DNA of 61,422 nt from Gemmatimonadales bacterium (GTDB taxonomy: Bacteria; Gemmatimonadota; Gemmatimonadetes; Gemmatimonadales; JACORV01): contig DASPSV010000110.1 of assembly GCA_035623755.1 (NCBI GenBank), positions 1 through 61,422 on the forward strand, written 5' to 3'. Shown piece by piece: positions 5,855 to 61,422 of this stretch (its first letter is position 1; each line of letters opens with the position of its first letter). The position numbers and the translations under genes were made by a program. The notes below the pieces were generated by a model. The model was not told the DNA's origin. It searched no databases and saw only the letters and a list, made by a program, of their open reading frames with translations.

Positions 5855-6982
5855 TTACAAGCGACCCACGGTTCGATAGACGGATTCGTAGCGGTCGAGC
5901 CACGGTTCCTCGGCGAATTCGTGGCCCAGACGCTCCAGCGCCTTGAGCGCGCGGCCCGAGGCCGCCGCCGGGTCCGCCAGCACGGCGCGGACGGCCGCCG
6001 CCAGGGCCCCGGGATCCTCCGGCGGCACGAGCAGCGCCTCGCCCGGCCCGACGACGTCGGGCACGCCCCCCACCGCGGTGGCGACGATCGGCGTCGTGGC
6101 GGCCATCGCCTCCAGCAGGACGATCGGCGTGCCCTCGCTGCGCGAGCTCAGGACGAAGGCGTCGAAGGCGGCGAGCAGCCGGCCGGCCCCGGGCACCAGG
6201 CCCGGCCACGCGATTCGGTCGGCCACGCCCAGCCGCGCCGCCAGGGCGCGGGCCGGCGCCGCCTCCGGACCGTCGCCGACGACGGCGGCGGACACCGGCA
6301 GGTCCCCGAGCGCGGCCATCGCGCGCACCAGCACGTCGGCGCCCTTCTCGCGCGTGAGCCGCCCGATCCACCCGATGCACAGCCCCTCCGCCGGCAGGCC
6401 GAGGGCGGCCCGCGCGGCTGCGCGCGGCTCGGCCGTGCCCGCGCCCATCCACGCGTTCCGCACCAGGTGGATGCGCTCGCGCGGCGTGCCGGCGCGCGCC
6501 AGCTGCTCGACCTGCGGCACGGAGACGGCGATCACCGCGTCGAAGCGGCGGAAGGCGCGCAGCTGGAGCCGCTCGTACAGCCGGTCCTTCCAGCCGCCGC
6601 CCGTGAAGCCGTGGACCGTCGTCACGGTGGGCAGGCCCAGGCGGCGCGCGGCCGGCGCATCCACGACGTCCGGGCGGTAGCCGTGGGTGTGGACGACGCG
6701 CGGGCCGAGGGTGCGGCACAGCTCGGCGACGGCGGCGCGCTCGCGCCCGTAGGCGCGGCCGGGGACGCGGACCGCGTGGATCGCGACGCCGGCGGCGCGG
6801 AGCGCGCCCAGGATCGGCGGCTCGTCCCGCGGCGGGCCCGGGAGCACCGCGGCGAGCGCGACCTCGTGGCCGCGGCGCCGGTGCCCGGTGGCCAGGGCCT
6901 CGATCACGCGCTGCATGCCGCCCACCTCGGTCGGCAGCACGACGTGCAGGATGCGGAGCGGTGCGGAGGGGCCGTCGGGCAC
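5855..6982 (-). CDS. Family-4 (GT-B) glycosyltransferase
   Basis: N-terminal 'LRILHVVLPTEVGGMQR'. C-terminal 'SSRSEGTPIVLLEAMAATTPIVATAVGGVPDVV' (EX7E region). GTG start at 6982. Confidence 0.9.
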   Translation of the reverse strand: MPDGPSAPLRILHVVLPTEVGGMQRVIEALATGHRRRGHEVALAAVLPGPPRDEPPILGALRAAGVAIHAVRVPGRAYGRERAAVAELCRTLGPRVVHTHGYRPDVVDAPAARRLGLPTVTTVHGFTGGGWKDRLYERLQLRAFRRFDAVIAVSVPQVEQLARAGTPRERIHLVRNAWMGAGTAEPRAAARAALGLPAEGLCIGWIGRLTREKGADVLVRAMAALGDLPVSAAVVGDGPEAAPARALAARLGVADRIAWPGLVPGAGRLLAAFDAFVLSSRSEGTPIVLLEAMAATTPIVATAVGGVPDVVGPGEALLVPPEDPGALAAAVRAVLADPAAASGRALKALERLGHEFAEEPWLDRYESVYRTVGRL

Positions 6983-15300: not shown

Positions 15301-16464
15301 GTGGAGGACCGGATCCAAGCCGAAGCGCCGCCCGCCATCCGCGTCACCCACGTCGTCTTCGACTTCGAAGGCGGCGGCCTCGAGAGCATGGTGGCCGCGA
15401 TGGCCGCGAAGTTCCGCGGCACCACCGTCGCGACCTCGCTGATCACGCTCGGCGGCCGCGTCGGCCGGCTCGGCGCCGCCACGCGCGAGCGCTTCGACCA
15501 GTTCGTGGTGGCGCGGCCCACGCGGGGCCTCTCGATGCTCCTGCCCCTCGGCCTCGCCGCGGACATCCGCCGCACCCGCGCCGACGTGGTGCACGTCCAC
15601 AGCGGGTCCTGGTACAAGGGCGCCAAGGCGGCGCGGCTCGCCGGCGTCGGCCGGGTGGTGTACACCGAGCACGGCCGCGAGCACGACGATCCGCGGCTGA
15701 TGCGGTGGCTCGACCGCCGAGCCGCGGCCCGCACCGACGTCGTGGTGGCCGTGTCGACGCGGCTCCGGGACTACCTCGCGGGCGCGGTCGGCGTGGACGC
15801 GGTGAAGCTGCGCGTGGTGCACAACGCGGTGGACACGTCGGTGTTCGCGCCGGGGCCGGCGCCCGCCGACCTCAGGGCGGCGCTCAAGATCCCGCCGGAC
15901 GCGCTGGTCGTGGGCAGCGTGGGCCGGCTCGAGGCGGTGAAGGCGTACGAGCGGCTGGTCGACGCGGCCGCGGCCCTGCGCGGGCGGCTGCCCTGCCCGC
16001 TCGCCGTCGTGATCTGCGGCGACGGGAGTCTCAAGCACGAGCTGCGCGCCCGCGCCGAGCGCCTCGGCGTGGGCGACCAGGTGTACCTGCCGGGATGGAC
16101 CGACCAGCCGGTGCGCTTCTACCGGCTGCTGGACGCGTTCGTGCTCTGCTCGCGGAGCGAGGGGGAATCGGTGAGCCTGATGGAGGCGATGGCCTGCGGG
16201 ATCCCGCCGGTGGTGACCGACGTCGGCGCCAGCGCCGAGATCGTGGGCGGCGAGCTGGCCGCGCAGGTGGTGCCGGCCGGGCGCGAGGCATCGCTCCCGG
16301 ACGTGATCGCCGCGACGCTGCGCCGGCCCCCCCCCGACCGCGCGGCCCTCGGCGCGGCGGCCCGGCGGCGTGCGGCGGCGCACTACGGCCTCGACGGCAT
16401 GATCGCGGCGTACGAGCGGCTGTATCGCGAAGGGCTCGCGGCGACCGCCGCGGAGGCGGACTGA
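15301..16464 (+). CDS. Family-4 glycosyltransferase
   Basis: 'IRVTHVVFDFEGGGLE' N-terminus. 'CSRSEGESVSLMEAMACGIPPVVTDVGASAEIV' EX7E region. GTG start at 15301; the exact start is uncertain. Confidence 0.85.
   Translation: MEDRIQAEAPPAIRVTHVVFDFEGGGLESMVAAMAAKFRGTTVATSLITLGGRVGRLGAATRERFDQFVVARPTRGLSMLLPLGLAADIRRTRADVVHVHSGSWYKGAKAARLAGVGRVVYTEHGREHDDPRLMRWLDRRAAARTDVVVAVSTRLRDYLAGAVGVDAVKLRVVHNAVDTSVFAPGPAPADLRAALKIPPDALVVGSVGRLEAVKAYERLVDAAAALRGRLPCPLAVVICGDGSLKHELRARAERLGVGDQVYLPGWTDQPVRFYRLLDAFVLCSRSEGESVSLMEAMACGIPPVVTDVGASAEIVGGELAAQVVPAGREASLPDVIAATLRRPPPDRAALGAAARRRAAAHYGLDGMIAAYERLYREGLAATAAEAD
16327..16335. repeat. Homopolymer C9 inside the GT4 gene
   Basis: Read directly: 'cgccggcccc cccccgaccg', encoding Pro-Pro-Pro. 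Confidence 0.95.
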
Positions 16465-17590: not shown

Positions 17591-17903
17591 GCGGCGCGGG
17601 CCGCGCGGAACACGCCGCGGGCGTCGCGTGCGCGCCGCGCGACCGCGTCCGGGCCTACGTCCGCTGTTGCGCGGGCGCCACTGCTCGAACCGCAGCGCAT
17701 CTTCCGCATCGCGGAACCCGAACCGGCGCCACGAGATACCGCGCGGTTGCGCGCAGCCGCGGATGGGCACGAGATTTGTTGATCGTCTACAGGATTCACG
17801 CTGCGAGCGGCCGCCCGGTAACGTCGGTCCGCTGCGTTCCCGATCATCCCCGTCGTGAGGCAGGCATCTGACTCAGGCTCCGTTGCCCCAGTTCCTTCCG
17901 CTG

Positions 17904-19265
17904 ATGGCGCCGCCGCGCCCGGTCGCACGACCGGCGCCGAAGGCGGCCTCCACCACCTCGGACCGGAAGAACGGGGCGCTGCTGTTCCTGTACTTCATGT
18001 GGGCCCTCAACGTCTTCGGCCCGCAGTGGCTCATCGCCAGCTTCGGGCCCCAGGTCGTCCTCAAGATCCCCACGCTGCTGTTCGGCGTGCTGCTGGTGGT
18101 GACCATCATGCGGGGCCCGCGCCGGCTGCTCATGCCGCTGCTGGTGTTCCTGCTCTACACGCTGCTGGCGCTGCCCTTCGCCTACGTCCGCGGCCTGGCG
18201 CTCGAGGTGACCAAGGCGCTGATCGTCTACTACGTGGTCGCGCTGGCCACGATGACGCTGGTGAAGAACGCGCGGCAGGCCGTGCCGCTTCTGCTGATGG
18301 CGCTGGCGGTCCAGTTCGGCGTGTGGGTGCTGCTCGGGGCGCGGGGCGGGCAGATCCCGTGGCACCCCGCGTACTTCAACTACGACAGCTTCGGGCCGCT
18401 GATGGTCCTGGGCCTGGCCGGCCTCTACTGGACCGCCATGGCCACGAAGAACAAGCGCTGGCGGATGGTGGCGTTCGCGCTCTGCGCGGGCTGCATCGTG
18501 GGCCTGGTGGTGTCGTTCGCCCGGGGCGCGGTGCTGTCCGCGGGCGTCGTGGCGGTGTGGCTGTGGTTCCGCTCGCCGCACAAGATCCGCACCTTCGCAC
18601 TCGGCGCGGGCGCGTTCGCGATCCTGGCGGTCGCGGCGCAGGTCTACAAGGGCGCCAAGTCCGCGGTCGAGTCCGGCAAGACGTCCACCGACTTCTGGAC
18701 CGAGATGGGCTCGAGCTTCGACCCCACCGAGGGCACGCGGACGGACCGGGAGGTCCTGTGGTCGCTGGCACGGCGGGAGTGGTCGGCCAACCCCGTCTTC
18801 GGGGTCGGGCCGAACTGCTTCGGCGCGTACGCGGCGGACCACTTCATGGCCGGCACCGTCGGCGGCCAGTATGACGAGAACCCCAAGACGCTGTGGGGCC
18901 GCGCGCTGCACAACACCTACTACCAGATCCTGTCGGAGTTCGGCGCGATCGGCTGCGCGATCTTCGTGTGGATGGTGTGGGACTTCTTCCGGCTCAACCG
19001 CAAGCTGCGGCACAAGCGGCGCATCGCGGCGTGGGCCGAGCGGAGCGGCGGCCAGCTCGACCTGAAGGCGCTGTCGTTCGGGCTGGAGGCCAGCATGGTG
19101 GGGTTCCTGCTCACCGCCTACTTCTACAACCAGATCTTCGACGTGCACTGGTTCTACACGCTGCTGACCCTCAACGCGCTGCTCGTGCACCTGACGCGGC
19201 CGGCCGGCGCCGCGGCCGCCGCCGCGCCGCAGCGCGGCGGCGTGGTGCTCGCCCGGGCCCGCTGA
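17904..19265 (+). CDS. wzy: O-antigen polymerase/ligase family membrane protein (Wzy-like)
   Basis: About 10 or more predicted TM helices. Wzy_C-like 'GRALHNTYYQILSEFGAIGCAIFVWMVW'. ATG at 17904 is chosen; the tracked ORF starts at TTG 17883. Confidence 0.75.
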   Translation: MAPPRPVARPAPKAASTTSDRKNGALLFLYFMWALNVFGPQWLIASFGPQVVLKIPTLLFGVLLVVTIMRGPRRLLMPLLVFLLYTLLALPFAYVRGLALEVTKALIVYYVVALATMTLVKNARQAVPLLLMALAVQFGVWVLLGARGGQIPWHPAYFNYDSFGPLMVLGLAGLYWTAMATKNKRWRMVAFALCAGCIVGLVVSFARGAVLSAGVVAVWLWFRSPHKIRTFALGAGAFAILAVAAQVYKGAKSAVESGKTSTDFWTEMGSSFDPTEGTRTDREVLWSLARREWSANPVFGVGPNCFGAYAADHFMAGTVGGQYDENPKTLWGRALHNTYYQILSEFGAIGCAIFVWMVWDFFRLNRKLRHKRRIAAWAERSGGQLDLKALSFGLEASMVGFLLTAYFYNQIFDVHWFYTLLTLNALLVHLTRPAGAAAAAAPQRGGVVLARAR

Positions 19266-19461: not shown

Positions 19462-19866
19462 CTAGAATTGACGTTCGATGTCGGAGCGCCCGCCCGAGGC
19501 GGGCGCCGCCCAGAAGCTCCCGTCGTGCTCGGCGTGCACCATCGCCCGGCGCCCGAACAGCCGCATCAGCGCGCCGATCGGCGTCACGACGACGTAGAAC
19601 ACCACGCCCATGAACACCGGGGTCGTGACCTTCGAGATCAGCTTCGCCAGGCCCATCCAGGCCCGCTCCAGCGGCCCGAGCCGGGTGGGCACCAGGAGCG
19701 CCGCCAGCACCAGTACGGCGCCCACGGCGCCGAGGACCTCGCCGGTCACCACCCGGTGGCGCCAGAAGTAGGCCAGCGCCGCCAGCACCAGGAAGGCGAT
19801 GCCGACGGTGAGGCCGAACTTGCGGCCTTCCGCCGCCGTCAGTCGAGCTGGAATTCCTGCTTCCAA
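19462..19866 (-). CDS. SxtJ-like membrane protein
   Basis: Last 134 codons of tracked ORF 19462..21366(-). The TTG at 19866 is preceded by a perfect AAGGAG 8 nt upstream. It starts 28 nt inside the 3' end of the carbamoyltransferase gene. Two TM helices: 'GLTVGIAFLVLAALAYFW' and 'VLGAVGAVLVLAALLV'. Confidence 0.7.
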   Translation of the reverse strand: MEAGIPARLTAAEGRKFGLTVGIAFLVLAALAYFWRHRVVTGEVLGAVGAVLVLAALLVPTRLGPLERAWMGLAKLISKVTTPVFMGVVFYVVVTPIGALMRLFGRRAMVHAEHDGSFWAAPASGGRSDIERQF

Positions 19867-21671
19867 TTCTGCGTCTCCTTCCAGGCCGGCTGCTCCGCCT
19901 TGTGCAGCAGGTACGGGCCGAGCACCAGCGCGTCGATGTGGGTGCGCATGAAGCAGGTGTGCGCGTCCTTCGGCGTGCACACGATCGGCTCGCCGCGCAC
20001 GTTGAACGACGTGTTCACCACCACCGGGCACCCGGTGAGCTTCTCGAACTGCCCGATGAGGTCGTAGTAGTCGGGGTTGGTGTCGCGGCTCACGGTCTGC
20101 ACCCGGGCCGAGTAGTCGATGTGCGTCACCGCCGGGATGTCGGACCGCGGCTGGTTCAGCAGGTCGAGGCCCCACAGCTTCTTCTGGTCCACCGTCATCG
20201 GGATCTGCCGTTCCTTCTTGACCGGCGCCACCAGCAGCATGTAGGGCGAGTCGCAGTCCATCTCGAACCAGTCGCACACCCGCTCGCGCATCACGCTCGG
20301 CGCGAACGGCCGGAACCCCTCGCGGAACTTGATCTTGATGTTCATCTGCGCCTGCATCCGCGGGCTCCGCGGATCGCCCAGGATGCTGCGCGAGCCGAGC
20401 GCGCGCGGGCCGAACTCCATCCGCCCGTTGAACCAGCCGACGATCTTCTCGTCCGCCAGCAGCTTCGCCGTCGTCTCGAGCAGCGGCTGCCGCTCCAGCC
20501 GGTGGTACACCGCGCCCACCGACTTCAGGAACGCCTCGATCTCCGCGTCGGCGAACGACGGGCCGAGGTAGGCGCCGCGCATCGTGTCCTTGCCGGGCGT
20601 CACGTTCCGCGGCTGCTGGAAGTGGCGGTGCCAGATGAGCTGCGCCACCCCCAGCGCGCCGCCGGCGTCGCCGGCCGCGGGCTGGATCCACAGCCGCTTG
20701 AAGGGGCCGTCGCGCAGGATCTTCCCGTTCCCGACGCAGTTCAGCGCCACGCCGCCCGCGAGGCACAGGTTCTCCTGGCCCGTCGCCTGGTGGACGGTGC
20801 GCGCCATCTTCATCATCACGTCCTCGCACACGTCCTGCACCGAGCGCGCGAGGTCCATGTCCCGCTGCGACAGCTTGGTCTCCGGCACCCGCGGCGGCCC
20901 GCCGAACAGCTCGTGGAACCTGCCGTTGGTCATCGTCAGCCCGTCCAGGTAGCCGAAGTACTCCTGGTTCAGCCGGAACGAGCCGTCCTCCTTGAGGTCG
21001 ATCAGATGGTCGTAGATCAGCTGCACGTACTTGGGCTCGCCGTAGGGCGCGAGCCCCATGACCTTGTACTCGCCGGAGTTGACCTTGAAACCCGTGTAGT
21101 ACGTGAACGCCGAGTACAGCAGGCCGAGCGAGTCGGGCCAGAACAGCTCCTTCAGGAGCTCGATGTCGCTGCCCTTCCCGACGCCGAAGGAGGCCGTGGC
21201 CCACTCGCCCACGCCGTCCATCGTGAGCAGTGCCGCCTGCTCGAACGGCGAGGGGAAGAACGCGCTCGCCGCGTGCGACTCGTGGTGCTCGGCGAACAGC
21301 ATCTCGCCGTCGTAGCCCAGCTTCTGCCGCAGGTCCCGCTCGGTGAACAGCTTCTCCTTGATCCACAGCGGGCCCGCCATCAGGAACTGGCGGAAGCCGG
21401 CCGGCGCCGTGCCCAGGTACGTGTCCAGGATCCGCTCGAACTTCAGGATCGGCTTGTCGTAGAAGCCGACGGCCGTCAGGTCCTGCGCCGTGACGCCGCC
21501 CGCCTTGAGGCAGTACGCGACGGCGTTCGCCGGATAGCTCGCGTCGCCCTTCTTCCGGGTGAAGCGCTCCTCCTGGGCGGCCGCGACGATCTCGCCGTCC
21601 CGGAGCAGGCAGGCGGCGCTATCGTGGTAGTACGCGGAAATGCCGAGTATCAGCTTCGAGTTCGTGGCCAC
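19839..21671 (-). CDS. Carbamoyltransferase (NodU/CmcH/SxtI family)
   Basis: 'LILGISAYYHDSAACLLRDGEIVAAAQEERFTRKK' N-terminal ASKHA-like domain. 'GGVALNCVGNG'. C-terminal YrdC-like/carbamoyl-AMP domain 'VNTSFNVRGEPIV'. GTG at 21671 is chosen (GAGG upstream); the tracked ORF starts at TTG 21686. Confidence 0.9.
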   Translation of the reverse strand: MATNSKLILGISAYYHDSAACLLRDGEIVAAAQEERFTRKKGDASYPANAVAYCLKAGGVTAQDLTAVGFYDKPILKFERILDTYLGTAPAGFRQFLMAGPLWIKEKLFTERDLRQKLGYDGEMLFAEHHESHAASAFFPSPFEQAALLTMDGVGEWATASFGVGKGSDIELLKELFWPDSLGLLYSAFTYYTGFKVNSGEYKVMGLAPYGEPKYVQLIYDHLIDLKEDGSFRLNQEYFGYLDGLTMTNGRFHELFGGPPRVPETKLSQRDMDLARSVQDVCEDVMMKMARTVHQATGQENLCLAGGVALNCVGNGKILRDGPFKRLWIQPAAGDAGGALGVAQLIWHRHFQQPRNVTPGKDTMRGAYLGPSFADAEIEAFLKSVGAVYHRLERQPLLETTAKLLADEKIVGWFNGRMEFGPRALGSRSILGDPRSPRMQAQMNIKIKFREGFRPFAPSVMRERVCDWFEMDCDSPYMLLVAPVKKERQIPMTVDQKKLWGLDLLNQPRSDIPAVTHIDYSARVQTVSRDTNPDYYDLIGQFEKLTGCPVVVNTSFNVRGEPIVCTPKDAHTCFMRTHIDALVLGPYLLHKAEQPAWKETQNWKQEFQLD

Positions 21672-21853
21672 GCAGCCTCGTCGCAATTAGACCGGTATGT
21701 GGGATGAGCAAGAAGTGCGCGCACGAGCCGGGCCGCGCGCCAAGTAACGTAAGTTGGCCCCGCTCGCCGGACTACGGCCCTCCAGGCCCCACCCGCGGTG
21801 AACACCGCTGCCGCACTGTTGCGGACATGCAACACGCCATGCGCCGCACCCAT

Positions 21854-24211
21854 CTACTTGCCGTCGCCGGGCACCAGGACCTCGGACATCCGCCGCGACA
21901 GCGCCTCGTAATCGATGGGCTCGCGCGCGCCCGGCGCCGCCGCCCCGCCCACCCCCCCAGGGCCCCGCCACAGGGCCTCGAACAGGTCGGCGAGGGCCTG
22001 TTCGTCACCCGGATCCACCACGTAGGCTCCCAGCCTCCGCGCCTCCGCCGCCGAGGCGCTGTCGGCCTCCGTGAGCACGACCGTCGGCACGCGCATGGCC
22101 ACCAGCTCGTACAGCTTGGCCGGGATCATCACCTTCTGGTCCTGGGCGAGGACGATCGACGCCGACGAGGCGGCCGCCAGGCGCAGCGCCTCGGCGCGCG
22201 TCACGACGCCCGCCAGGTGGACGTACGCCTCGAGCCCGGCGGCGTGCGTCTGGGCCCGCAGGTCCGCCAGCCGTCCCTCGTCGAGATGACCGGCGACGCG
22301 AACGCGGGCCTCCTCCGGGCCGGTCCCCGGGTGGCGGTCGAGCACGGCGCGGAACGCCCGCAGCACGGGGCCGAGGTTGCGCCGGATGTAGAGCGTGCCG
22401 GCGTGCACGACCGTGAGGCCCGGCTCCCGCGCGGCGTCCACCCTGGGGAGCTGCTCGAGATCCACGCCGTTGCGGACCCAGGTGGCGCGCCGCGACGGGA
22501 ACCGCGCGGCGATGGCGGCGGCCAGCTCGGGGGTGTTGGCGATCGCCTCGCGGGCGACGGCGAACACGCGCCGCTCCAGGCGGCGGGCGAGGGCGCGCGC
22601 GATCCGGGACGCGTACAGCTCGGTGAACCACGGATCGCGGAAGTCCACCACCAGCGGCACGCCGAGCGCCGCGCAGGCGCGGGCAGCGACGACGTGCGCC
22701 GTGTGCGGGGGCCCGCTCGAGACCACCACGTCGGGCTCGAAGCGCGCGAGGAGCGCGCGCGCCTCGCGGGTCGCGCGCCGCATCCAGCCGCGGCTCTGGT
22801 CCGGGAACCCCAGCAGGGACGCGAGCCGGCGCCGCAGGCTCGGCGAGGCCGGCACCATCGTGCCGTCGCCGCCCTGCGGTGCGGTCGGAGCCGCGGCGCC
22901 GCGCCGCAGGAACTTCCGTGCGGACCGCGCGAGCCGGTTGTAGAGGTCGTTCAGCGTGGCGCGCCGCGGACACACGTGCACCTGAACGCCGCCCGCGAGC
23001 CCCGGCTCGGTGGCCGTCGAGCCGGTGAGGACGTGCACCTCCCAGCCCTGCCGCACCAGGTACTTGGAGAAGCCCGCCCACCGGAGCCCGCCGACGGCCC
23101 CGTCGGGCGGATAGTGGTAGCTGACGACCAGGAGCCGCTTCGGGCGGCGCACCGCGATCGGCGCCGCTCGCACGGGGGCAGGCGAGGATCCCGCCGTCGC
23201 GCTCGGCGCCGAGCCCGCGCCGGGCGCCGGGGCCGCGCTGCCGTGGAGTCTCCCCGCTTCGCCGACGGTCGCGAAGGTCACAGGGTACCGCCGCGCGAGC
23301 CCGTCCACGAGCCGCTCGATCCACGCGAGCAGGCGCTCCACGTCACGGCGCGAGCCGGCGAAGGGCGAGAGCCCGGGCCGCAGCGTGGGGCTGTGCAGCG
23401 TGATCTGGAGGTGCGAGACGCCGTGCGCGACCAGCTGCCGCGCCAGTCGGAGGCCGTCCGACGTCGAGCTGATCTCGGGACTCAGCACCACCTTCTGCAG
23501 GAGCCCGAGGCGCGCGGCGACGCCGGCGAGGCGCAGCCGCCGCAGCCACGAGCCGGTCAGCGCGCCGTGCACGGCGGCCCAGCGATCGAACGGCCAGCGG
23601 GTGAAGCCGCACGAGAGCGGGACCTCGACGAGCGGACCGCCGCTCACGGCCGTGCGCGGGTCGGTGGTGCCGTCGAGCGCGTACATCGAGAGCGGGGCCC
23701 CCGTGAAGTCGGCGCCGCCGTCCGAGTCCGTCCAGTCGATCCACGGCGTCACCGAGCTGTCCACCCGGTAGCCGGCCTCGATCAACCGCTGCGTCGTCTC
23801 CCGTCCCAGGCCGTAGCGGCCGGCCCGGAACGAGGTCGGGCGCACGCCCGTCGCCTGCTCGAGGGCCCGGGTGAGCGTCGCGAGCTTCGCGCCCTGCAGC
23901 GCCGGCGGGAGGTTCTTCGTCATCGAGTTGCGCGCGACGAACTCCTCGTCCAGGGGCGGCGTGTTCCACGGGTGGAGGTGCGCGCCGACTTCCGCGAGCC
24001 CGCCGGCGACGAGGTCCCGCAGGATCCCGGCCGCCCACGGCACGCGCGCCACCTCGCAGGTCGTGAAATACGTGGGCCGGAGACCGATCCGCTCGCAGTG
24101 CGCCTGGAACCGCGGCAGCTCCCGGATGTTGTCCACCGTCACGCCGGAGCGCGCGCGTCCCCAGTTGTCCTCCTCGGTGTCCACCGAGAGCAGCACGACG
24201 GTGCCGGCCAT
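21854..24211 (-). CDS. Bifunctional fusion: WalW/WbmS-like polysaccharide deacetylase (N-terminal) and GT4-like glycosyltransferase (C-terminal)
   Basis: 785 aa. N-terminal 'VLLSVDTEEDNWG...GAHLHPWNTPP...FRAGRYG'. Ala/Pro/Ser linker at about aa 323-357 (nt about 23141-23245). C-terminal 'LLVVSYHYPPDGAVGGLRWAGFSKYL...VVSSGPPHTAH...VVHAGTLY...'. The ATG at 24211 shares one base with the upstream TGA (TGATG). Confidence 0.8.
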   Translation of the reverse strand: MAGTVVLLSVDTEEDNWGRARSGVTVDNIRELPRFQAHCERIGLRPTYFTTCEVARVPWAAGILRDLVAGGLAEVGAHLHPWNTPPLDEEFVARNSMTKNLPPALQGAKLATLTRALEQATGVRPTSFRAGRYGLGRETTQRLIEAGYRVDSSVTPWIDWTDSDGGADFTGAPLSMYALDGTTDPRTAVSGGPLVEVPLSCGFTRWPFDRWAAVHGALTGSWLRRLRLAGVAARLGLLQKVVLSPEISSTSDGLRLARQLVAHGVSHLQITLHSPTLRPGLSPFAGSRRDVERLLAWIERLVDGLARRYPVTFATVGEAGRLHGSAAPAPGAGSAPSATAGSSPAPVRAAPIAVRRPKRLLVVSYHYPPDGAVGGLRWAGFSKYLVRQGWEVHVLTGSTATEPGLAGGVQVHVCPRRATLNDLYNRLARSARKFLRRGAAAPTAPQGGDGTMVPASPSLRRRLASLLGFPDQSRGWMRRATREARALLARFEPDVVVSSGPPHTAHVVAARACAALGVPLVVDFRDPWFTELYASRIARALARRLERRVFAVAREAIANTPELAAAIAARFPSRRATWVRNGVDLEQLPRVDAAREPGLTVVHAGTLYIRRNLGPVLRAFRAVLDRHPGTGPEEARVRVAGHLDEGRLADLRAQTHAAGLEAYVHLAGVVTRAEALRLAAASSASIVLAQDQKVMIPAKLYELVAMRVPTVVLTEADSASAAEARRLGAYVVDPGDEQALADLFEALWRGPGGVGGAAAPGAREPIDYEALSRRMSEVLVPGDGK

Positions 24212-55124: not shown

Positions 55125-55298
55125 TGGTCCGGGCAAACTTAGAGCCGGTGGGGCGCCGGGGCAATGCGCCCGCCCGCGGGGCGCGGCGGAACGTGACGCA
55201 GGATACATTCGATGCCCATGAGTCCCGACGCGCCGCCGTCCCCGCCGCGCCCCGCGCTCGGCTTCCTGGCCCGCCTGCTGCACCGCGGGAGGCGCTGG

Positions 55299-55799
55299 AT
55301 GACCCTGCGGCGCCTGGCGCGACGCCCGCAGCCGCCGTCGCTGCTGTTCCTGTGCCACGGCAACCTGTGCCGCAGCCCGTTCGCGGCCGGCGCGGCGCGC
55401 CGCCTGCTCCCCGCCTACGTCGACGTCGCGTCCGCGGGCTTCCTCGCGGCGGGCCGGCGCTCGCCGTCCGACGCCGTCGCCGCCGCCGCCGAGCTCGGCG
55501 TCGACCTCGCCGGCCACCGGTCGCAGCTCATCACCGGCGCTCACCTGGTCAACACCGACCTCGTCGTCGTGATGGACCGCGAGCAGCGGCGTCGCGTCCT
55601 GGCGATGCGGCCCGGACTCGCGGGTCGCGTCCTGCTCCTCGGCGATCTCGATCCCGAGCCCGGGCCGTGGCGCGACGTGCCGGATCCCGTCAACCAGCCG
55701 CTCGACGCGTTCCGCTCAGCGTACGCCCGCATCGACCGGTGCGTCCGCTCGCTCGTCTCCCCCTGGCGTGAGGGCGCCGGCCGCGAGACCGGCGTATGA
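55299..55799 (+). CDS. wzb: Low-molecular-weight protein-tyrosine phosphatase (Wzb-like)
   Basis: P-loop 'LFLCHGNLCRSP' (CX5R-S) and the Asp loop 'DVPDP'. ATG at 55299 is chosen (GGGAGG 7 nt upstream, giving a normal 166-aa length). The tracked ORF starts at 55212. Confidence 0.85.
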   Translation: MTLRRLARRPQPPSLLFLCHGNLCRSPFAAGAARRLLPAYVDVASAGFLAAGRRSPSDAVAAAAELGVDLAGHRSQLITGAHLVNTDLVVVMDREQRRRVLAMRPGLAGRVLLLGDLDPEPGPWRDVPDPVNQPLDAFRSAYARIDRCVRSLVSPWREGAGRETGV

Positions 55800-56969
55800 C
55801 GCCGCCAGCTGGATCGCCGGCGTCGGCAAGAGGCCCACGAGCACCGGCAGCACGGCCGCGCCGCCGAGCGCGAGGAGCGCGACGGCCGCGCCCGCCGCGT
55901 TCCGCTTGAGCAGCGCGCCCACCGGCAGCGCCAGCAGCGCCATGAACGCGCAGTCGAGCGCGGCCTGCGCCGCGGCCGGCAGGCCGGACATCGCGTGGAC
56001 CAGCGCCCACGCGCGGCCCGCGGCGAACGCGAGGCCGCACCGCTCGCGCCCGTTCACGGCCAGGCACCAGCCGCCGCCCGCGCGCCGCGCGAGCAGGGCC
56101 AGCGTGTCGCCGGGCTGAACGCCGGCGAGGGCGCCGCGCCAGCGCAGGTCCGGCGCGTCGAGACCGAGGTCCGCCGCGCGCCGGCGGACGCGCAGCACGA
56201 GGTCGTCCCGGTCGGCCCCCAGCTCCAGGATCTCCCGCTGGACGCCGTCCGCGATGCCGAACAGCGGCGCCAGCGTGCGTGTGCGCGGGCCCGCGACCGC
56301 CAGCACCCGGAGCGTCGCGCCGCCGGCGAGGGAGTCCCGCACCGACCGCGCATCCGGGAGCGGCCCGTCGGGCAGCGGAGCACCGTCCAGGTCCACGCGC
56401 AGCACCCGGCCCCCGTAGGTCTCGAACTGCGCCAACGCGGCGGTCCACTGGCCGTACCAGGCCGACGCGGGCAGGCTGGGCCGGAGCGCCAGGCCCGCGC
56501 CGGCGAGCGCCACCAGCATTGCCGCGGCCGCGAGCGCCCCCCCCGACAGGGAGCGGCGCCGCGCCCAGAAGTGCCAAGCGAGCACGACCAAGGCGGCCCC
56601 GCTCGTGTTCGAGATGATGTCGCCGAGCGTGGACTCGCGGCCGGGGATCCACAGCTGCAGGGTTTCGATGAGCGCCGAGAGGACGAACGCGGCGGCGACG
56701 ATCGTGCGGCCCCGCATGCCGGCGAGCACCAGGCCGGCCGCGAGCGGAACGAACAGCGCGACGTTGGCGATGAAGTCGGCGGCGCCGCCGTCGCCGCACA
56801 GCACGCACCAGCGGAACGTGCCGGTGTCCGGCCCCGAGTCCGGCGTCAGCGTGAGGCCCAGCACCACGGCGATCCCGACCGCGGCGAGCGCGAGGCCCGG
56901 CCCCCGCGCCCGGCCGGCGCTCGCCGGCTGGCCGCGCCGCGCGGCGCGCGCCCCGGACCCCCGCCCCAC
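55716..56969 (-). CDS. VanZ-like membrane protein with an extended C-terminal region
   Basis: Last 417 codons of tracked ORF 55716..57533(-). The GTG at 56969 is 2 nt after the wzt TAG. VanZ signature 'FIANVALFVPLAAG' and 'IETLQLWIPGRESTLGDIISNTSGAAL'. C-terminal TM helices. Confidence 0.6.
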   Translation of the reverse strand: MGRGSGARAARRGQPASAGRARGPGLALAAVGIAVVLGLTLTPDSGPDTGTFRWCVLCGDGGAADFIANVALFVPLAAGLVLAGMRGRTIVAAAFVLSALIETLQLWIPGRESTLGDIISNTSGAALVVLAWHFWARRRSLSGGALAAAAMLVALAGAGLALRPSLPASAWYGQWTAALAQFETYGGRVLRVDLDGAPLPDGPLPDARSVRDSLAGGATLRVLAVAGPRTRTLAPLFGIADGVQREILELGADRDDLVLRVRRRAADLGLDAPDLRWRGALAGVQPGDTLALLARRAGGGWCLAVNGRERCGLAFAAGRAWALVHAMSGLPAAAQAALDCAFMALLALPVGALLKRNAAGAAVALLALGGAAVLPVLVGLLPTPAIQLAASYAGLAAGALTPGGDERADAPVDAGVR

Positions 56970-56971
56970 GC

Positions 56972-58198
56972 CTACGGCCGCCCGGAGCCCGGCGACGCCG
57001 GTCCGGGCTCGAACGCCACGACGCGGGGATACAGGTTGGCGACGCCGCGCACGTCGCGGTCCGACTCGATCACGATCGACGCCGCGGGGGCCCAGCGGTC
57101 GTACTCCCGCTCGATGTCGTAGCGCTTGAGGATCGCCCCGAGGTGGAACGTGCCGGGCGCGAGGTGCAGGTCCAGCTGCACCGAGCAGCGGAAGATGCCG
57201 CCGGCCTGAAGGTCGATCGGCCGCTGGCCCAGCCGCTCGGTCGAGGTGTCGAACACCTGCTGGGCGTTGCCGTCCTGGACGACCAGCGAGACGGACAGCC
57301 GCTCGCACGCGGTCCGCGCCGCGAGCTCCACGTCCACCCACGCCCGCTCGCCCGCCTGGAACAGCGTGCGCGGCCCGTCGGCGCCGCGGACGGTGATGCG
57401 CGCGATGTGCGCGTCGCGCCCGTCCACGTCGCGGCGGCCGGCCAGCGACGCCAGGAGGTACGCCTGCGTCACCTCGGCCGGGGCGCCCGCGGCCGTCACC
57501 CGGCCGTGGTCGAGGAGCAGCGCGCGGCTGCACAGGTCGTTCACGGCCCGCAGGTTGTGCGACACGAACAGCACCGTGGTGCCCTGGCGGATCACCTCGC
57601 GCATCCGCTCCATGCAGCGGCGCTGGAAGACCAGGTCGCCGACGCTCAGCACCTCGTCCACCAGCAGCACGTCGGGGTCGACGTGCGCCGCGACGGAGAA
57701 GCCGAGCCGCGCGAACATGCCGGACGAGTAGCGCTTGACCGGCGTGTCCATGAACTCCTCGAGCCCGGAGAACCCCACGATCGCGTCGAAGCGGCGCCGG
57801 ATGTCCTGGCGGGACATGCCGAGGATGGTGCCGTAGAGGTAGACGTTCTCGCGCCCCGTGAGGTCGGGGTGGAAGCCGGCGCTCACCTCGATCAGGGCCG
57901 ACAGCCGGCCGTGGATCCGCACCGCGCCGCGGGTCGGGCGCAGGATGCGGCCCAGCAGCTTGAGCAGCGTGCTCTTGCCGGCGCCGTTGCCGCCCACCAC
58001 GCCGAGCGCCTCGCCCCGGCCGACGGTGAACGACACGTCGTCGAGCGCCCAGAACTCCCGCGCCGCCAGCTCGGGCCGGCCGGTGCGGCGCACGGCGCGG
58101 CGCACCAGCGCCGGCACGAGGTCGCGGAGCGAGTCGTGCAGCTCGCCGCGGCGGAACTTCTTCGAGACGTGCTCGACGGCGACGGTGGTGTCGTCCAT
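56972..58198 (-). CDS. wzt: ABC transporter ATP-binding protein, Wzt/TagH type, with a C-terminal Wzt_C-like beta-sandwich domain
   Basis: Last 408 codons of tracked ORF 56972..59482(-). ATG at 58198. Walker A 'GGNGAGKST', signature 'YSSGMFARL', Walker B 'VLLVDEVL', H-loop 'VSHN'. C-terminal about 160 aa: 'ITVRGADG...VSLVVQDGNAQQVFDTST...LAPGTFHLGAIL'. Confidence 0.9.
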   Translation of the reverse strand: MDDTTVAVEHVSKKFRRGELHDSLRDLVPALVRRAVRRTGRPELAAREFWALDDVSFTVGRGEALGVVGGNGAGKSTLLKLLGRILRPTRGAVRIHGRLSALIEVSAGFHPDLTGRENVYLYGTILGMSRQDIRRRFDAIVGFSGLEEFMDTPVKRYSSGMFARLGFSVAAHVDPDVLLVDEVLSVGDLVFQRRCMERMREVIRQGTTVLFVSHNLRAVNDLCSRALLLDHGRVTAAGAPAEVTQAYLLASLAGRRDVDGRDAHIARITVRGADGPRTLFQAGERAWVDVELAARTACERLSVSLVVQDGNAQQVFDTSTERLGQRPIDLQAGGIFRCSVQLDLHLAPGTFHLGAILKRYDIEREYDRWAPAASIVIESDRDVRGVANLYPRVVAFEPGPASPGSGRP

Positions 58199-58203
58199 GC
58201 GGC

Positions 58204-58998
58204 TCAGATCCGCTCCGCGAACCAGGGCTCGAGACGCCGGAAGGCGAGCACCCCGCCCGCGCAGCACGCGGCCGCCACGCCGAGCGCGTACGCCGTCCAG
58301 CCGGGATCGGGCGGCCGCCCGCCCACGACGGCGCCGGCCAGGCCCACCAGCAGCGGGGCCACCGGGTTGAGAAGCGCGGCGCTCGCGTGGCGCCCGAAGA
58401 TCTCGACCGGGTAGAAGACCGGCGTGAAGAACACGGCGAAGGTGATCACGACGTCCACCAGGTACTTCACGTCGCGGAAGAACAGCGCCGCGGCCGACAG
58501 GAACATCCCCAGGCCGAGGCACAGGGCCACCAGGCCGAGCACCAGGAGCGGCACCCACACCAGCGCCACGCTGGCGCCGACGCCGGTGAAGGCGAGGATC
58601 ACGATCAGCACCAGCGACGCCACGCCGAAGTCCGCGAACTGCGACAGCACCGCCGCGACCGGGAACACCTCGCGCGGCAGGTACACCTTCGTCACCAGCT
58701 CGCTGTTGGCGATCAGGCTGTTGGTGGCGAACCGCAGCGAGGCGACGAAGAACGCCCACGGCACCGACTTCACGGCGACCGCGGCGAGGTTCCGGGTGTC
58801 CACCTGCCGGCCCGCGTACCACCCGAGGCCGTATTGCACCGCCACGCCGGCGCCGACCACCAGCGCCGGCATCAGGATCGCCCACAGGAAGCCCATCACC
58901 GACTGCTTGTACTTGATCCGGATGTCGCGCCACGCCAGCATGGCCACGAGGTCCCACCAGCGGGCCAGGCGGCCACGGCCGCTCACGCCCCGGGTCAC
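58204..58998 (-). CDS. wzm: ABC-2 type transporter permease (Wzm/TagG type)
   Basis: Last 264 codons of tracked ORF 58204..60039(-). The GTG at 58998 overlaps the nucleotidyltransferase stop (GTGA). 'LAWRDIRIKYKQSVMGFLWAILMP' and six TM helices. Confidence 0.85.
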   Translation of the reverse strand: MTRGVSGRGRLARWWDLVAMLAWRDIRIKYKQSVMGFLWAILMPALVVGAGVAVQYGLGWYAGRQVDTRNLAAVAVKSVPWAFFVASLRFATNSLIANSELVTKVYLPREVFPVAAVLSQFADFGVASLVLIVILAFTGVGASVALVWVPLLVLGLVALCLGLGMFLSAAALFFRDVKYLVDVVITFAVFFTPVFYPVEIFGRHASAALLNPVAPLLVGLAGAVVGGRPPDPGWTAYALGVAAACCAGGVLAFRRLEPWFAERI

Positions 58999-60119
58999 GC
59001 GGCGCCCTCCCCCGGCGGCGGACCGGCCGTGGTGCGCCACGCGCGATACGCGGCCCGCGCCACCCGGCCCGCGACCCAGCGGCGCGCCTGCCGGAACGGT
59101 CCCGTGCCTGCCACCACCGGCGTGGTGCCGACGCCCAGCTCGGCGCGCGTGCCCTCCTCCAGCAGCCGCTCGCGGAACGCGCCGTCGCCGCCCGCGAGCA
59201 CCCGCAGCCGCCAGGCGAGCGCGCGCTCGAGGTCGAAGCCGCCATCCGCGGCCGCCGGCACGGGCGGCGGCCCGGCGAGGTCCGCGGCGGCGGCGAGCCA
59301 CGCCCGCGCCAGCCGCGGGTCCGCCTCGTCGCCCGCCGCGAGCCGCGACGCCACCAGCTCCCAGTCCAGCGCCGCTCCCGAGGCCATGATCGATGCGCCG
59401 TCGAGGAAGTAGCGCAGCCGGAACCCGGCCGGGCCCATCTGCACCGCGTGCGCGAGCCCGTGCCACAGCAGCTCCGTCGCATTCGGCACGCGCACCGGCA
59501 CGCCGTGCCACACCAGGTCCTCGCCGGCGCGCGTCGCGCGCCGCCACGCCTCGGCGGGCGCGACGCCCGGGCCCGTGGACCGGTGCAGCTCCACGCCGAT
59601 GCCGTTCGGCCCCTTGAGCGGCGGCGGATGGTAGTGGCCGGCCGGCGTCGCCGACGGCTCGGTCACGTAGTCCCAGCCGCGCGAGCGCAGGTCGTTCCAC
59701 GTCTCCTCCACGCGCGCGGCCGGCAGGAGCAGGTCCACGTCGAGCGTGTCGCGCGCGTCGGCGAACGGGTAGCGCGCGGCGGCGGCGCGCCGCGCGGTGC
59801 CCTTGATCGCCACGCAGGGCACGCCGCGCTCGTTCAGGAGGCGCAGCACTCCATCCGCCTCCGCGTCCACGAGCAGGCCGTGGGCCCGCTCCGCCGAGGC
59901 GCGCGCGCGGAGCGCCGCGCCCACGGCCTCCGGCACGGCGTCCTCGAGGCCGAGCGCCGCCAGGCGCCGCAGCAGCCACTGGGTGCCGCCCTCCCACGCC
60001 ACCGCCGCCGCCGCCGCGCGGGCGTCCAGCGCGCGCCACGCGTCGCGGACGGACGCCGCGCTCCCCGCCGGCCGCAGCCGGAGGGTGGCGGCGAGCGCGC
60101 GCGCCGGGTGCCGGCTCAT
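58995..60119 (-). CDS. Nucleotidyltransferase family protein (NTP_transf_5 / PF14907-like)
   Basis: Last 374 codons of tracked ORF 58995..60512(-). The ATG at 60119 overlaps the B2 stop (ATGA). 'VPCVAIKGTARRAAAARYPFADARDTLDVDLLL...GWDY...HYHPPPL...IGVELH' is typical of the uncharacterised NTase family found in lasso/RiPP-type clusters. Confidence 0.65.
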   Translation of the reverse strand: MSRHPARALAATLRLRPAGSAASVRDAWRALDARAAAAAVAWEGGTQWLLRRLAALGLEDAVPEAVGAALRARASAERAHGLLVDAEADGVLRLLNERGVPCVAIKGTARRAAAARYPFADARDTLDVDLLLPAARVEETWNDLRSRGWDYVTEPSATPAGHYHPPPLKGPNGIGVELHRSTGPGVAPAEAWRRATRAGEDLVWHGVPVRVPNATELLWHGLAHAVQMGPAGFRLRYFLDGASIMASGAALDWELVASRLAAGDEADPRLARAWLAAAADLAGPPPVPAAADGGFDLERALAWRLRVLAGGDGAFRERLLEEGTRAELGVGTTPVVAGTGPFRQARRWVAGRVARAAYRAWRTTAGPPPGEGAA

Positions 60120-60505
60120 CCGGCCACGGGCGAGGGGAACCTCGCGATCTCGGTGAAGCGGGCGCTGTGCGAGGGGTCCGGCTCGAGGTAGGGCGCGCCG
60201 TCCTTCATCAGCCACGCATGCGCGGCCAGCGCCGCGCCCGCCTCCCGGCGGACCCCGATGCGCAGCTCGACGGGACGGCCGGACCGGCGCAGCAGCCAGT
60301 ACAGCACGACGCCGCGCCGCAGGCAGGTGTGGCGCCACGGCGGCGGCAGCCGGTACAGCACCTGGCTCACGTACGCGGCGAGGACCGCATCGTCGGGGAC
60401 CGCACCCGCGCCCGCCGGTCCCGTGCCCGCCGCGCGGACGATCCGCTCCAGCGACACGACCGACAGGAGCGGCGGCAGCACGGCGCAGGCCGCCAGCGCC
60501 CGCAC
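60116..60505 (-). CDS. Lasso-peptide-type B2 protein (transglutaminase-like Cys protease)
   Basis: 129 aa. 'HTCLRRGVVLYWLLRRSGRPVELRIGVRRE...LAAHAWLMKDGAPYLE' carries the Cys/His/Asp arrangement of McjB-C-terminal/B2 proteins. GTG start at 60505. Confidence 0.7.
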   Translation of the reverse strand: MRALAACAVLPPLLSVVSLERIVRAAGTGPAGAGAVPDDAVLAAYVSQVLYRLPPPWRHTCLRRGVVLYWLLRRSGRPVELRIGVRREAGAALAAHAWLMKDGAPYLEPDPSHSARFTEIARFPSPVAG

Positions 60506-60531
60506 CCGCCACGCGGTGGACAGCTCGCCGC

Positions 60532-60807
60532 TCAGGGCCGCTCCTCCACCAGCAGCACGCCGGCCTGCACGCCCCGGTCGAGGAAGGCCCGCGTGGTGTC
60601 CGCCGCCACGGCGACCGTGACCTGGTACTTCGAGGTCAGCACCGCCACCAGCTCCTCGAGCGAGCGCGGCCTCTCGAGCGCCTCGAGCAGGTCGAGTCCG
60701 CTCTCGCTCACCGTGTAGTAGCGCCGCGTGCCCAGGTGCAGGGCCACGCCCTCGCCCTCGAGCGCCGTGAGCCGCAGCTCCGGGTGCCGCCGGTAGCGGC
60801 GCGTCAT
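60532..60807 (-). CDS. PqqD-family protein (RiPP recognition element; lasso B1-like)
   Basis: 91 aa. 'LTALEGEGVALHLGTRRYYTVSESGLDLLEAL..PRSLEELVAVL' is the canonical PqqD/RRE pattern. The ATG overlaps the upstream stop (ATGA). Confidence 0.7.
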   Translation of the reverse strand: MTRRYRRHPELRLTALEGEGVALHLGTRRYYTVSESGLDLLEALERPRSLEELVAVLTSKYQVTVAVAADTTRAFLDRGVQAGVLLVEERP

Positions 60808-61422
60808 GGCACCAGCTCCATCAGCAGGTCACGGTGACGGAACACGTCGGGCGCCAGCGCGACGCGGTAGCAGCGCGCCTGGCGCGCCAGCGCGCCCAGG
60901 AGGTCCAGGTGCTCCTGCGCCAGGTCGGGCTCGAGGACCACCCACGCCGACCAGCGCACCAGCTCCGCCAGCGCCTCGCGCGCCGGAACCGGCGCGGCGC
61001 TGGTGCGATCGCCCTCGATGCGCGGAAACACCACGATGCGCGGCTCCACCCGCGGCGCCCACGTCCCGCCGAGGTCCTCGGGAAAGAAGACGGTCTTGCG
61101 CCCGCCCCGCGCGGCGGTGCCGCCGTCGAGGCCGAGCAGGGCCCGGCCCGCGGGCCGGAGCGCGACCGGCGCGCGCTGCGCCACCGCTTCCACGCCGGCG
61201 TCGCGCCGCACCAGGAACGCGGCGTCGTCGCAGCCCACCGCCCAGCCCCACGTCGCCAGGAGCGCCGCGGTGGTGGACTTCCCCGACTGGGCGTTGCCGG
61301 CGATCAGCCAGTCGCGGCCGCGGGGATCGCGCGCGAGCGCCGCGTGCACGTGGTGCCAGCCGGCCCGCCTGAGCAGCAGGATCAGGACCACCGACAGGAA
61401 GGTCTGCGCCAGCGCCTCGCGC
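60804..61422 (-). CDS. HPr-kinase-like serine kinase (lasso-cluster kinase-like), 5'-truncated by the window edge
   Basis: P-loop 'IAGNAQSGKSTTA'. The reading frame stays open upstream of the tracked GTG at 61391 to the last base of the window (...REALAQTFLSVVLILLL...). The N-terminus is therefore probably outside the window. Confidence 0.65.
   Translation of the reverse strand, partial: REALAQTFLSVVLILLLRRAGWHHVHAALARDPRGRDWLIAGNAQSGKSTTAALLATWGWAVGCDDAAFLVRRDAGVEAVAQRAPVALRPAGRALLGLDGGTAARGGRKTVFFPEDLGGTWAPRVEPRIVVFPRIEGDRTSAAPVPAREALAELVRWSAWVVLEPDLAQEHLDLLGALARQARCYRVALAPDVFRHRDLLMELVP

Follow-up and report, generated by a model that had tools for sequence, protein, structure and literature searches.

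The window analysed here, a 61,422-nt stretch of Gemmatimonadales bacterium DNA (contig DASPSV010000110.1, assembly GCA_035623755.1) with a G+C content of approximately 75%, ends in an operon that combines lasso-peptide-type maturation genes with a Wzm/Wzt-type exporter and a VanZ-like gene. Analysis of the open reading frames (ORFs) and their junctions revealed seven consecutive minus-strand genes between positions 55716 and 61422, chained by ATGA or GTGA overlaps or by gaps of no more than 26 nt, as described in the initial annotation of this DNA. The gene families named there were also upheld by Pfam and NCBIfam profiles, with the kinase the weakest call by sequence. From the window edge inwards the genes are:

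60804..61422, minus strand: HprK-like peptide kinase (K); the C-terminal 205 of 305 codons lie in the window and the remainder past its edge
60532..60807, minus strand: PqqD-family (PF05402) RiPP recognition element (RRE; B1), a leader-peptide-binding chaperone, where RiPP denotes a peptide made by the ribosome and modified after its translation
60116..60505, minus strand: lasso-type B2 cysteine protease (leader peptidase; PF13471, NF033537)
58995..60119, minus strand: PF14907 nucleotidyltransferase (NTase; N), counterpart of PsmN, BsfN and LppN
58204..58998, minus strand: ABC-2 (Wzm-type) permease (PF01061)
56972..58198, minus strand: Wzt-type ABC ATPase (ABC_tran) with a C-terminal Wzt_C substrate-binding domain (PF14524)
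55716..56969, minus strand: VanZ-like membrane protein (PF04892)

The kinase and PqqD genes share an ATGA overlap (60804-60807) that places the B1 start over the kinase stop; a second ATGA overlap (60116-60119) joins B2 to the NTase gene, and a GTGA overlap (58995-58998) joins the NTase gene to wzm. The gap between PqqD and B2 is 26 nt, given a B2 start at GTG 60505, that between Wzm and Wzt is 5 nt, and that between Wzt and VanZ is 2 nt, given a VanZ start at GTG 56969. Confidence is lowest for the starts of B2 and VanZ: in the closest relatives the gene calls are 7-16 codons shorter (B2 115-122 aa, VanZ 401 aa), which would widen the PqqD/B2 and Wzt/VanZ gaps to approximately 30-70 nt. The operon genes were defined by homology; gene calling based on G+C at third codon positions (GC3) performed poorly inside the operon because antisense frames also have high GC3. 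An eight-gene order, comprising these genes and a precursor gene upstream of the kinase, was kept in relatives at only ~80% DNA identity, and the arrangement is therefore more than chance.

The sequence beyond the window edge was obtained by an exact-protein look-up of the NTase, which is present in identical form on four contigs and led to two longer metagenomic contigs, L001 (46.5 kb) and L002. Over the common stretch each shows 99.66% identity to the window, and upstream of the kinase the two contigs match each other at 100%. On both contigs the gene order is GH127, a 28-aa ORF, then K-B1-B2-N-Wzm-Wzt-VanZ. The full-length kinase (305 aa, L001:8399-9316) starts approximately 300 nt past the window edge and is followed on its upstream side by a 400-nt spacer and then the GH127 glycosidase gene. 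Inside this spacer, ~80 nt upstream of the kinase start and 379-465 nt past position 61422 in window coordinates, is a 28-codon ORF (MEKKPFVPPTLNEEASLAEVTLVSGQAT) preceded by the ribosome-binding site GGAAGGAGG. Its product divides into leader and core as MEKKPFVPPTLNEEASLAEVTL|VSGQAT. A precursor gene just beyond 61422, as the initial annotation had anticipated, was thus found on these near-identical contigs.

A word-indexed search returned more than 300 relatives of the kinase, essentially all from Gemmatimonadota metagenome bins, and an exhaustive search of 1.84 billion representatives yielded 46 clusters at 50% identity with E <=1e-30, beyond which similarity fell off steeply into a broad superfamily. 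When one genome per species was scanned, 44 Gemmatimonadota loci were identified, in ~40 of which the small ORF, kinase, PqqD, B2 and NTase genes are collinear. Three partial loci were also observed, consisting of a solitary kinase with flanking tRNA-like sequence, a kinase-NTase pair that lacks PqqD, B2 and a precursor, and a kinase without an ORF directly upstream (L012, L013 and L019). The loci encode 43 distinct precursor ORFs, one to three per locus, all on the kinase strand and nearly all preceded by a Shine-Dalgarno motif. Their leaders follow the consensus [RK]-K-P-F-V-x-P-x-[LIV]-x-E-E-A-S-L-x-x-V-T-L, with F/Y(-17), L/I/V(-12), L(-6), T(-2) and L(-1) present in 43/43 and P(-14) in 42/43. 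Lasso RREs and B2 proteases require exactly this spacing of leader residues (PMC10368454). When a hidden Markov model of the leader was run against the six-frame translation of 785 kb, it matched only same-strand positions upstream of kinases (E up to 4e-8; next match >1). Entropy at the three codon positions was 0.64, 0.61 and 1.38 bits, with synonymous codons at every conserved residue; this third-position variation combined with amino-acid conservation indicates that the ORF is translated and under purifying selection.

The cores are hypervariable, range from 6 to 40 aa and are rich in Gly, Ser, Thr, Asn, Arg and His. Core position 2 is Ser in 34/43 and Thr in four more, position 3 is Gly in 28/43, and the C-terminal residue is Ser or Thr in 26/43. 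The core of the window lineage is the six residues VSGQAT; those of its closest relatives are VSETGGGGLPT and VSEGSGGGGPPT. We considered whether the 6-aa core marks a decayed pseudogene and rejected this, as several other species carry 6-8-aa cores and all enzymes are intact. Several other loci (L021, L022, L025, L028, L029, L035 and others) encode cores with His-Gly repeats (HGHGHGHELGHGHGH, GHGHGHGHGNGHNS) or Arg/Lys/His-rich tails, and these long low-complexity cores suggest metal binding or cationic activity.

A hairpin follows the precursor ORF. In the window lineage it is a 13-bp G+C-rich stem, followed by UUUGCUUUG, at L001:8342-8372 (~330-360 nt beyond 61422), and 30 precursor genes from other loci have the same element. 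A G+C-rich hairpin of this kind follows most precursor genes, a median of 27 nt past the stop codon, with common arms CGCCAG...CTGGCG and often GCGCGCCAGG/CCTGGCGCGC; the inner stems and loops vary yet stay complementary (18 distinct inner arms, mean stem 13.5 bp). The element is ~240-fold enriched after precursors compared with the rest of the 785 kb, and a T-rich tail is present in only 13/43. No Rfam family was identified in the precursor-kinase spacer, and a consensus terminator scan neither flagged the hairpin nor detected a sigma-70 promoter. Because the folding z-score of the whole spacer is only -1.5, support for the hairpin rests on its conservation across loci. It is probably an attenuator or an mRNA-stabilising stem.

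We next consider the four enzymes encoded with the precursor. By sequence the kinase matched HprK_rel_A (TIGR04352) and ScmC at E ~1e-6; the full-length protein scored 24.9 bits against the TIGR04352 cutoff of 200 and so falls outside this equivalog (HprK-related kinase A), and profile searches against PDB sequences gave only marginal HprK P-loop matches. The AlphaFold (AF2) model is confident, with a predicted local distance difference test (pLDDT) score of 94.6, and has a PEPCK/HprK-type fold; its Foldseek match was to PEPCK, not to HprK itself, and was taken solely as evidence of the shared fold. Residues H124/H126, G142, G147-K148-S149 (P-loop) and D165-D166 (DD motif) are conserved in >=95% of relatives, and the K-to-DD spacing of 17 is the same as in the mutationally validated motif of BsfK. 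The confident model, the fold and the conserved motif residues together firm up the kinase call. For B1, the match to PqqD (PF05402) had an E value of 1e-11, the top NCBIfam match was lasso_PqqD_Bac (below cutoff), and the top PDB sequence matches were the lasso RREs 9x90_B and TbiB1 (5v1u); the gene is collinear in 40 loci. B2 matched Transglut_core3 (PF13471, E 2e-18) and scored 63.9 bits against a cutoff of 33 for NF033537, 'lasso peptide biosynthesis B2'; its residues C61 (TCL), H96 (AHAWL) and E108 are conserved in >=95% of 39 relatives. The NTase matched NTP_transf_5 (PF14907, E 6e-27), with K106-G107, D127-x-D129 and E177/H179 conserved in >=95% of relatives. PDB sequence searches with B2 and with the NTase gave no match. 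These families bear out the K-B1-B2-N logic of paeninodin- and pseudomycoidin-type clusters to which the initial annotation had likened the operon.

A lasso cyclase was sought using the PP-loop motif SGGxDS and tblastn with three Pfam-verified cyclases. None was detected in any of the ~44 Gemmatimonadota loci, and the Acidobacteriota and Micromonospora controls were positive; on L001/L002, neither the 8 kb upstream of the operon nor the 10 kb downstream of it contained one. The cores are also unlike those of lasso peptides. Asp or Glu occurs at core positions 7-9 in only 6/43, and 27/43 have no acidic residue; VSGQAT has none. Such acid-free cores cannot form a lasso ring because there is no Asp/Glu for ring closure. 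The loci therefore carry the RRE, the B2 protease and the Y(-17)/P(-14)/L(-12)/T(-2) leader of lasso clusters, and lack the cyclase and the ring-closing acid. The first of two possibilities raised in the initial annotation, a true lasso cluster with its precursor and cyclase genes just outside the window, fails at this point: the gene next upstream of the precursor encodes GH127, no cyclase was found, and the core is an acid-free hexapeptide.

The closest match to this gene set is the family of linear polyphosphorylated peptides (LPPs) of Bacillota, in which core Ser3 is multiply phosphorylated (Popov et al. 2026, Nat Commun, PMC13381572). Besides a precursor and an exporter, LPP clusters encode an HprK-like kinase, a discrete PqqD-type RRE and a PF14907-type NTP transferase; each of these has a counterpart here, and neither system has a cyclase. 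In both, conserved leaders precede hypervariable cores. Alignment of the LPP motif YxxPxVLxHQxIxFETxxS with the Gemmatimonadota motif FVxPxLxEEASLxxVTLxS showed that Y/F1, P4, V/L6 and T16 coincide, and the conserved core Ser (34/43, plus four Thr) matches Ser3 of LppA because both stand at motif position 19. The systems differ in several respects. The LPP leader is removed by an enzyme of the signal-peptidase-I type and the family is restricted to Bacillota according to its authors (PMC13381572); no archaeal-type signal peptidase I (LppS) was found in the operon or its flanks, and a lasso-type B2 is present instead. The predicted cut is one residue later here (after T-L) than in LPPs (after T), the leader reads FVxPxLxEEASLxxVTL rather than YxxPxVLxHQxIxFET, and the cores span 6-40 aa, compared with LPP precursors of 35-200 aa. 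In place of the MsbA-like exporter LppD the exporter here is Wzm/Wzt with Wzt_C, which is absent in many species.

Three further systems share parts of the module. The Gram-negative Bsf phosphorylated lasso clusters (Duan et al. 2023, PMC10368454) have the same A, K, B1, B2 and N genes, a Y/F(-17)-P(-14)-L(-12) leader, and the kinase motif H...G...GKS...DD with equal K-to-DD spacing. They differ in having a cyclase, a Gly1...Asp8 core, a single-gene ABC exporter and Ile at -2, whereas the loci examined here have no cyclase, usually no acidic residue and an invariant Thr(-2). The paeninodin and pseudomycoidin clusters (Zhu et al. 2016; Zyubko et al. 2019; reviewed in PMC8498205) also pair an HprK-like kinase and a PF14907 NTase as tailoring enzymes with B1/B2, and the many cores ending in Ser/Thr here recall their substrates; however, they make true lasso peptides with cyclases, phosphorylate a C-terminal Ser and have WxxP leaders. 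HprK-related kinase A/PqqD cassettes (TIGR04352) and the SynChlorMet protein ScmC show weak similarity around the P-loop, but the cassettes of this kind in other phyla (L050, L045) lack B2 and the precursor found here.

Taken together, these data make it likely that the operon, which has no cyclase, descends from a phosphorylated-lasso-type RiPP pathway and is the Gemmatimonadota counterpart of the Bacillota LPPs, and that its product is probably a very short linear phosphorylated peptide. On the best reading the pathway works like that of LPPs, in a variant that uses a lasso B2 in place of the signal peptidase and Wzm/Wzt in place of the MsbA-like exporter. In this scheme the 28-aa precursor would be bound through its leader (F-17, P-14, L-12) by the PqqD-type RRE. 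The HprK-like kinase, assisted by the RRE, would phosphorylate core position 2, where Ser is conserved, perhaps more than once; in the Gram-negative bsf lasso cluster, BsfK adds phosphate to core Ser3, and B1 stimulates it (PMC10368454). The B2 cysteine protease would cut after Thr(-2)-Leu(-1) and free the linear core, which in the window lineage would be V-pS-G-Q-A-T (calculated [M+H]+ 642.249 when monophosphorylated, 562.283 unmodified). The PF14907 NTase may then add a hexose or nucleotide to the phosphate, as PsmN, the PF14907 enzyme of pseudomycoidin biosynthesis, adds hexoses to a phosphate (PMC8498205). Finally, the Wzm/Wzt ABC-2 transporter would export the product, and its Wzt_C domain may recognise the phospho-modified end.

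Several points weigh against this interpretation. The precursor was read from contigs 99.7% identical to the window and not from the window itself. With six residues, the core is of a length unusually small among RiPPs, and the characterised kinases are only distant relatives of this one. All chemical steps, including the phosphorylation site, their order, the NTase chemistry and the role of the exporter, are proposed by analogy. Phosphorylation of an N-terminal core Ser as in LPPs is suggested by motif position only, and the phosphosite is ambiguous, as paeninodin-type kinases act on a C-terminal Ser and 26/43 cores end in Ser/Thr. LppN was inactive in a heterologous host (PMC13381572) and BsfN is uncharacterised (PMC10368454). 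A final set of objections concerns the exporter.

Wzm/Wzt systems with a Wzt_C domain are glycan-type exporters, and in O-antigen ABC transporters this C-terminal domain binds terminal caps. The operon encodes both components: the permease matched ABC2_membrane (PF01061, E 6e-10), with a weak match to galactan Wzm/RfbD, and the ATPase matched ABC_tran (PF00005, E 6e-19) and, at residues 261-388, Wzt_C (PF14524, E 2e-13). Scores against the TagH and galactan Wzt/Wzm equivalog models were all below cutoff (180 vs 320, 173 vs 400 and 48 vs 380). The separate ABC-2 permease and Wzt_C-bearing ATPase are as in O-antigen and teichoic-acid-type exporters; unlike those systems, the pair is coupled translationally to RiPP enzymes and the operon has no glycan-assembly genes, and no glycosyltransferase or polyprenyl-phosphate transferase was identified in or adjoining it. 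Same-strand Wzm-Wzt genes downstream of the NTase were found only in the window clade (L001/L002, L137, L138, L056) and in L036; the Wzm copies of L036 and L056 are 83-90% identical to that of the window and occupy the same position. In at least 11 other species, a divergent Wzm/Wzt pair lies convergent to the NTase gene, within ~80 nt of its stop. These pairs are ~30% (permease) and ~50% (ATPase) identical to the window copies, and their ATPase also carries Wzt_C. They are isolated two-gene units with no glycosyltransferases nearby, beyond which lie unrelated genes (DUF4097 plus Ser/Thr kinase, peptidase, diacylglycerol kinase), and a species without the pair shows the same flanking synteny, with a slot between N and the DUF4097-Ser/Thr kinase genes. 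Among the 30 species with >=3 kb of sequence after the NTase, Wzm plus Wzt(Wzt_C) occurred within 4 kb of N in 13, in two arrangements and two divergent lineages. That an exporter of this unusual type was acquired twice independently argues that Wzm/Wzt and the module are functionally linked.

On the opposite side, 17/30 species have no Wzm/Wzt near the module, and relatives of the window Wzt at 50-59% identity have no peptide module in their available flanks. For one of these relatives (L062, 53% identity) the neighbourhood is a classical glycan locus, which holds genes for an epimerase, a sugar nucleotidyltransferase and a GT1 glycosyltransferase as well as a VanZ-like gene. For these reasons the exporter may serve a glycan, and we rate the chance that Wzm/Wzt is the dedicated exporter of the modified peptide at slightly better than even.

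The VanZ-like gene shows a different pattern of linkage. It matched PF04892 (E 4e-12), and its AF2 model (pLDDT 90.5) comprises an N-terminal helical bundle, an extracytoplasmic beta-sandwich (~170-315) and three C-terminal helices. In Foldseek searches with this model the beta-sandwich gave only non-significant matches (E >=0.08), all of them to ConA-like, LamG, galectin or PL7 lectin or glucanase folds. In another Gemmatimonadales genome (L135), VanZ occurs with a convergent low-molecular-weight phosphatase gene, a CarboxypepD_reg outer-membrane protein and a 712-aa protein, without the peptide module and without Wzm/Wzt; in L054 the VanZ block directly follows the NTase. VanZ is probably co-transcribed with the operon, but it is likely to belong to a conserved envelope block alongside, as the leading gene of that block, and not to the peptide pathway. 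The arrangement is best seen as a peptide module, with or without Wzm/Wzt, placed in front of the VanZ envelope block. The description of the maturation genes as hard-wired to Wzm/Wzt and VanZ in the initial annotation holds only in the clade of the window, and VanZ travels with a different conserved block. In the window, the low-molecular-weight phosphotyrosine phosphatase gene (55212-55799, plus strand; CHGNLCRS motif) is convergent with VanZ and overlaps its 3' end by 84 nt, an overlap conserved in relatives including L135.

These observations bear on two further explanations of the exporter. Wzm/Wzt and VanZ could be unrelated co-transcribed neighbours, with the peptide exported otherwise or acting inside the cell. 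The many species without an adjacent Wzm/Wzt and the occurrence of the VanZ-phosphatase-outer-membrane protein block without the module are consistent with this. In addition, the L036 Wzm, Wzt and VanZ proteins are 83, 77 and 52% identical to those of the window, compared with 43, 55, 50 and 42% for K, B1, B2 and N, which suggests separate histories. However, two divergent Wzm/Wzt lineages independently adjoin N, one overlapping it through the GTGA junction and the other convergent at close range with no other plausible substrate genes around, and one and the same syntenic slot holds the convergent pair in some species and not in others. We consider this explanation unlikely, although it retains appreciable weight.

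Somewhat less probable is that the peptide module works in an envelope glycan pathway, in which a peptide activated by phosphate or a nucleotidyl group would be joined to, prime or cap a glycan or polymer translocated by Wzm/Wzt, with participation of the lectin-fold VanZ-like protein and nearby envelope genes. The glycan-type exporter, the translational coupling in the window clade and the glycan locus of L062 with its VanZ-like gene point in this direction, as do the embedding of LPP and paeninodin clusters in capsule loci (PMC13381572), an Armatimonadota kinase-NTase pair followed by a Wzy_C gene, and an exopolysaccharide locus at 1-26 kb of the window. Against these stand the lack of glycosyltransferase and polyprenyl-phosphate transferase genes in or next to the operon, the occurrence of the module without nearby glycan genes in most species, and the isolation of the convergent Wzm/Wzt pairs, which usually stand alone. 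The second possibility in the initial annotation, an RRE/protease module repurposed inside a glycan pathway, is for these reasons not the best reading. More speculatively still, the peptide might be a phospho-linked handle and not a freely secreted product, with the kinase and NTase converting Ser2 to an activated phosphodiester that is elongated into or joined to a glycan or polymer, recognised by Wzt_C and exported as a conjugate by Wzm/Wzt. If true, this doubtful scenario would mean that Gemmatimonadota prime or cap a cell-surface polymer with a peptide of ribosomal origin.

Two explanations of the peptide module itself fared far worse. That the small upstream ORF is not a substrate but, for example, a regulatory leader, with K, B1, B2 and N acting on another protein or on a small molecule, would fit its very short length and the conserved, attenuator-like hairpin after it. 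It is nevertheless highly improbable given the codon-position evidence for translation, the Shine-Dalgarno motifs before nearly all copies, the lasso-leader residues at canonical distances from Thr(-2), and the one to three copies per locus with hypervariable tails, as in RiPP precursors. Least credible is a genuine, possibly tailored lasso cluster served in trans by a cyclase encoded elsewhere, which the B2 score above the curated lasso cutoff, the exact lasso register of the leader, an AsnB-type gene in the window and the true lasso clusters of the nearest non-Gemmatimonadota kinase relatives would favour, but which the ~44 loci without a cyclase within 8-10 kb on either side, the 27/43 acid-free cores and 6-aa cores too short for a 7-9-membered ring plus tail have already largely refuted.

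The AsnB-type gene (7074-8996, plus strand, 640 aa), the sole cyclase-like sequence in the window and 47 kb from the operon, was rejected as a trans-acting cyclase; it scored 193 bits against the lasso cyclase cutoff of 525. It passes the model for glutamine-hydrolysing asparagine synthase, and its top match was the XrtA/PEP-CTERM amidotransferase (550 bits, below cutoff). The nearest non-Gemmatimonadota kinase relatives, in Acidobacteriota (L047, L048, L051) and Micromonospora (L049), lie in lasso clusters with Asn-synthase cyclases. Their precursors (e.g. ...KKLYRPPVLTIHGTVKDLTQTLGRRGVRDNPQ...) have an acidic residue in the ring range and directly precede the kinase, as in the Gemmatimonadota module. 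Two arrangements without B2 or cyclase were also observed in other phyla: a PqqD-kinase-NTase cassette between ETF and AFOR genes in an uncultured deltaproteobacterium (L050:9484-11877), with the kinase apparently frameshifted, and the Armatimonadota kinase-NTase pair (L045:9593-13715), where the Wzy_C product is O-antigen ligase-like.

Searches of the literature turned up no earlier account of a cluster that has B2 but no cyclase, nor of this family in Gemmatimonadota. One survey counts 'lasso peptide' biosynthetic gene clusters in 29 marine Gemmatimonadota metagenome-assembled genomes without analysis; this count may include the loci described here, and automated 'lasso peptide' counts in the phylum may be counting something else. 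The first description of linear phosphorylated relatives of lasso peptides dates from 2026 and concerns Bacillota only. The Gemmatimonadota loci would represent a second, probably independent route to the same outcome, in which the full lasso leader, RRE and B2 were retained and the cyclase was lost, and which became fixed across a largely uncultured phylum. They offer a natural test of the roles of the HprK-like kinase and the still-uncharacterised PF14907 transferase without a lasso fold. The recurrent pairing with a Wzt_C exporter hints at a link between a ribosomal phosphopeptide and capped-glycan machinery, echoing the capsule-locus context in Bacillota.

The other envelope locus of the window, at 1251-26457, is of the exopolysaccharide or O-antigen type. 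It also encodes a GDSL esterase and contains:

1251-2570: UDP-GlcNAc 2-epimerase
3187-5610: Wzz/GNVR/P-loop Wzc-like tyrosine kinase
5855-6982, 15301-16464 and 21854-24211: GT4 glycosyltransferases
17883-19265: Wzy_C protein
19839-21686: carbamoyltransferase

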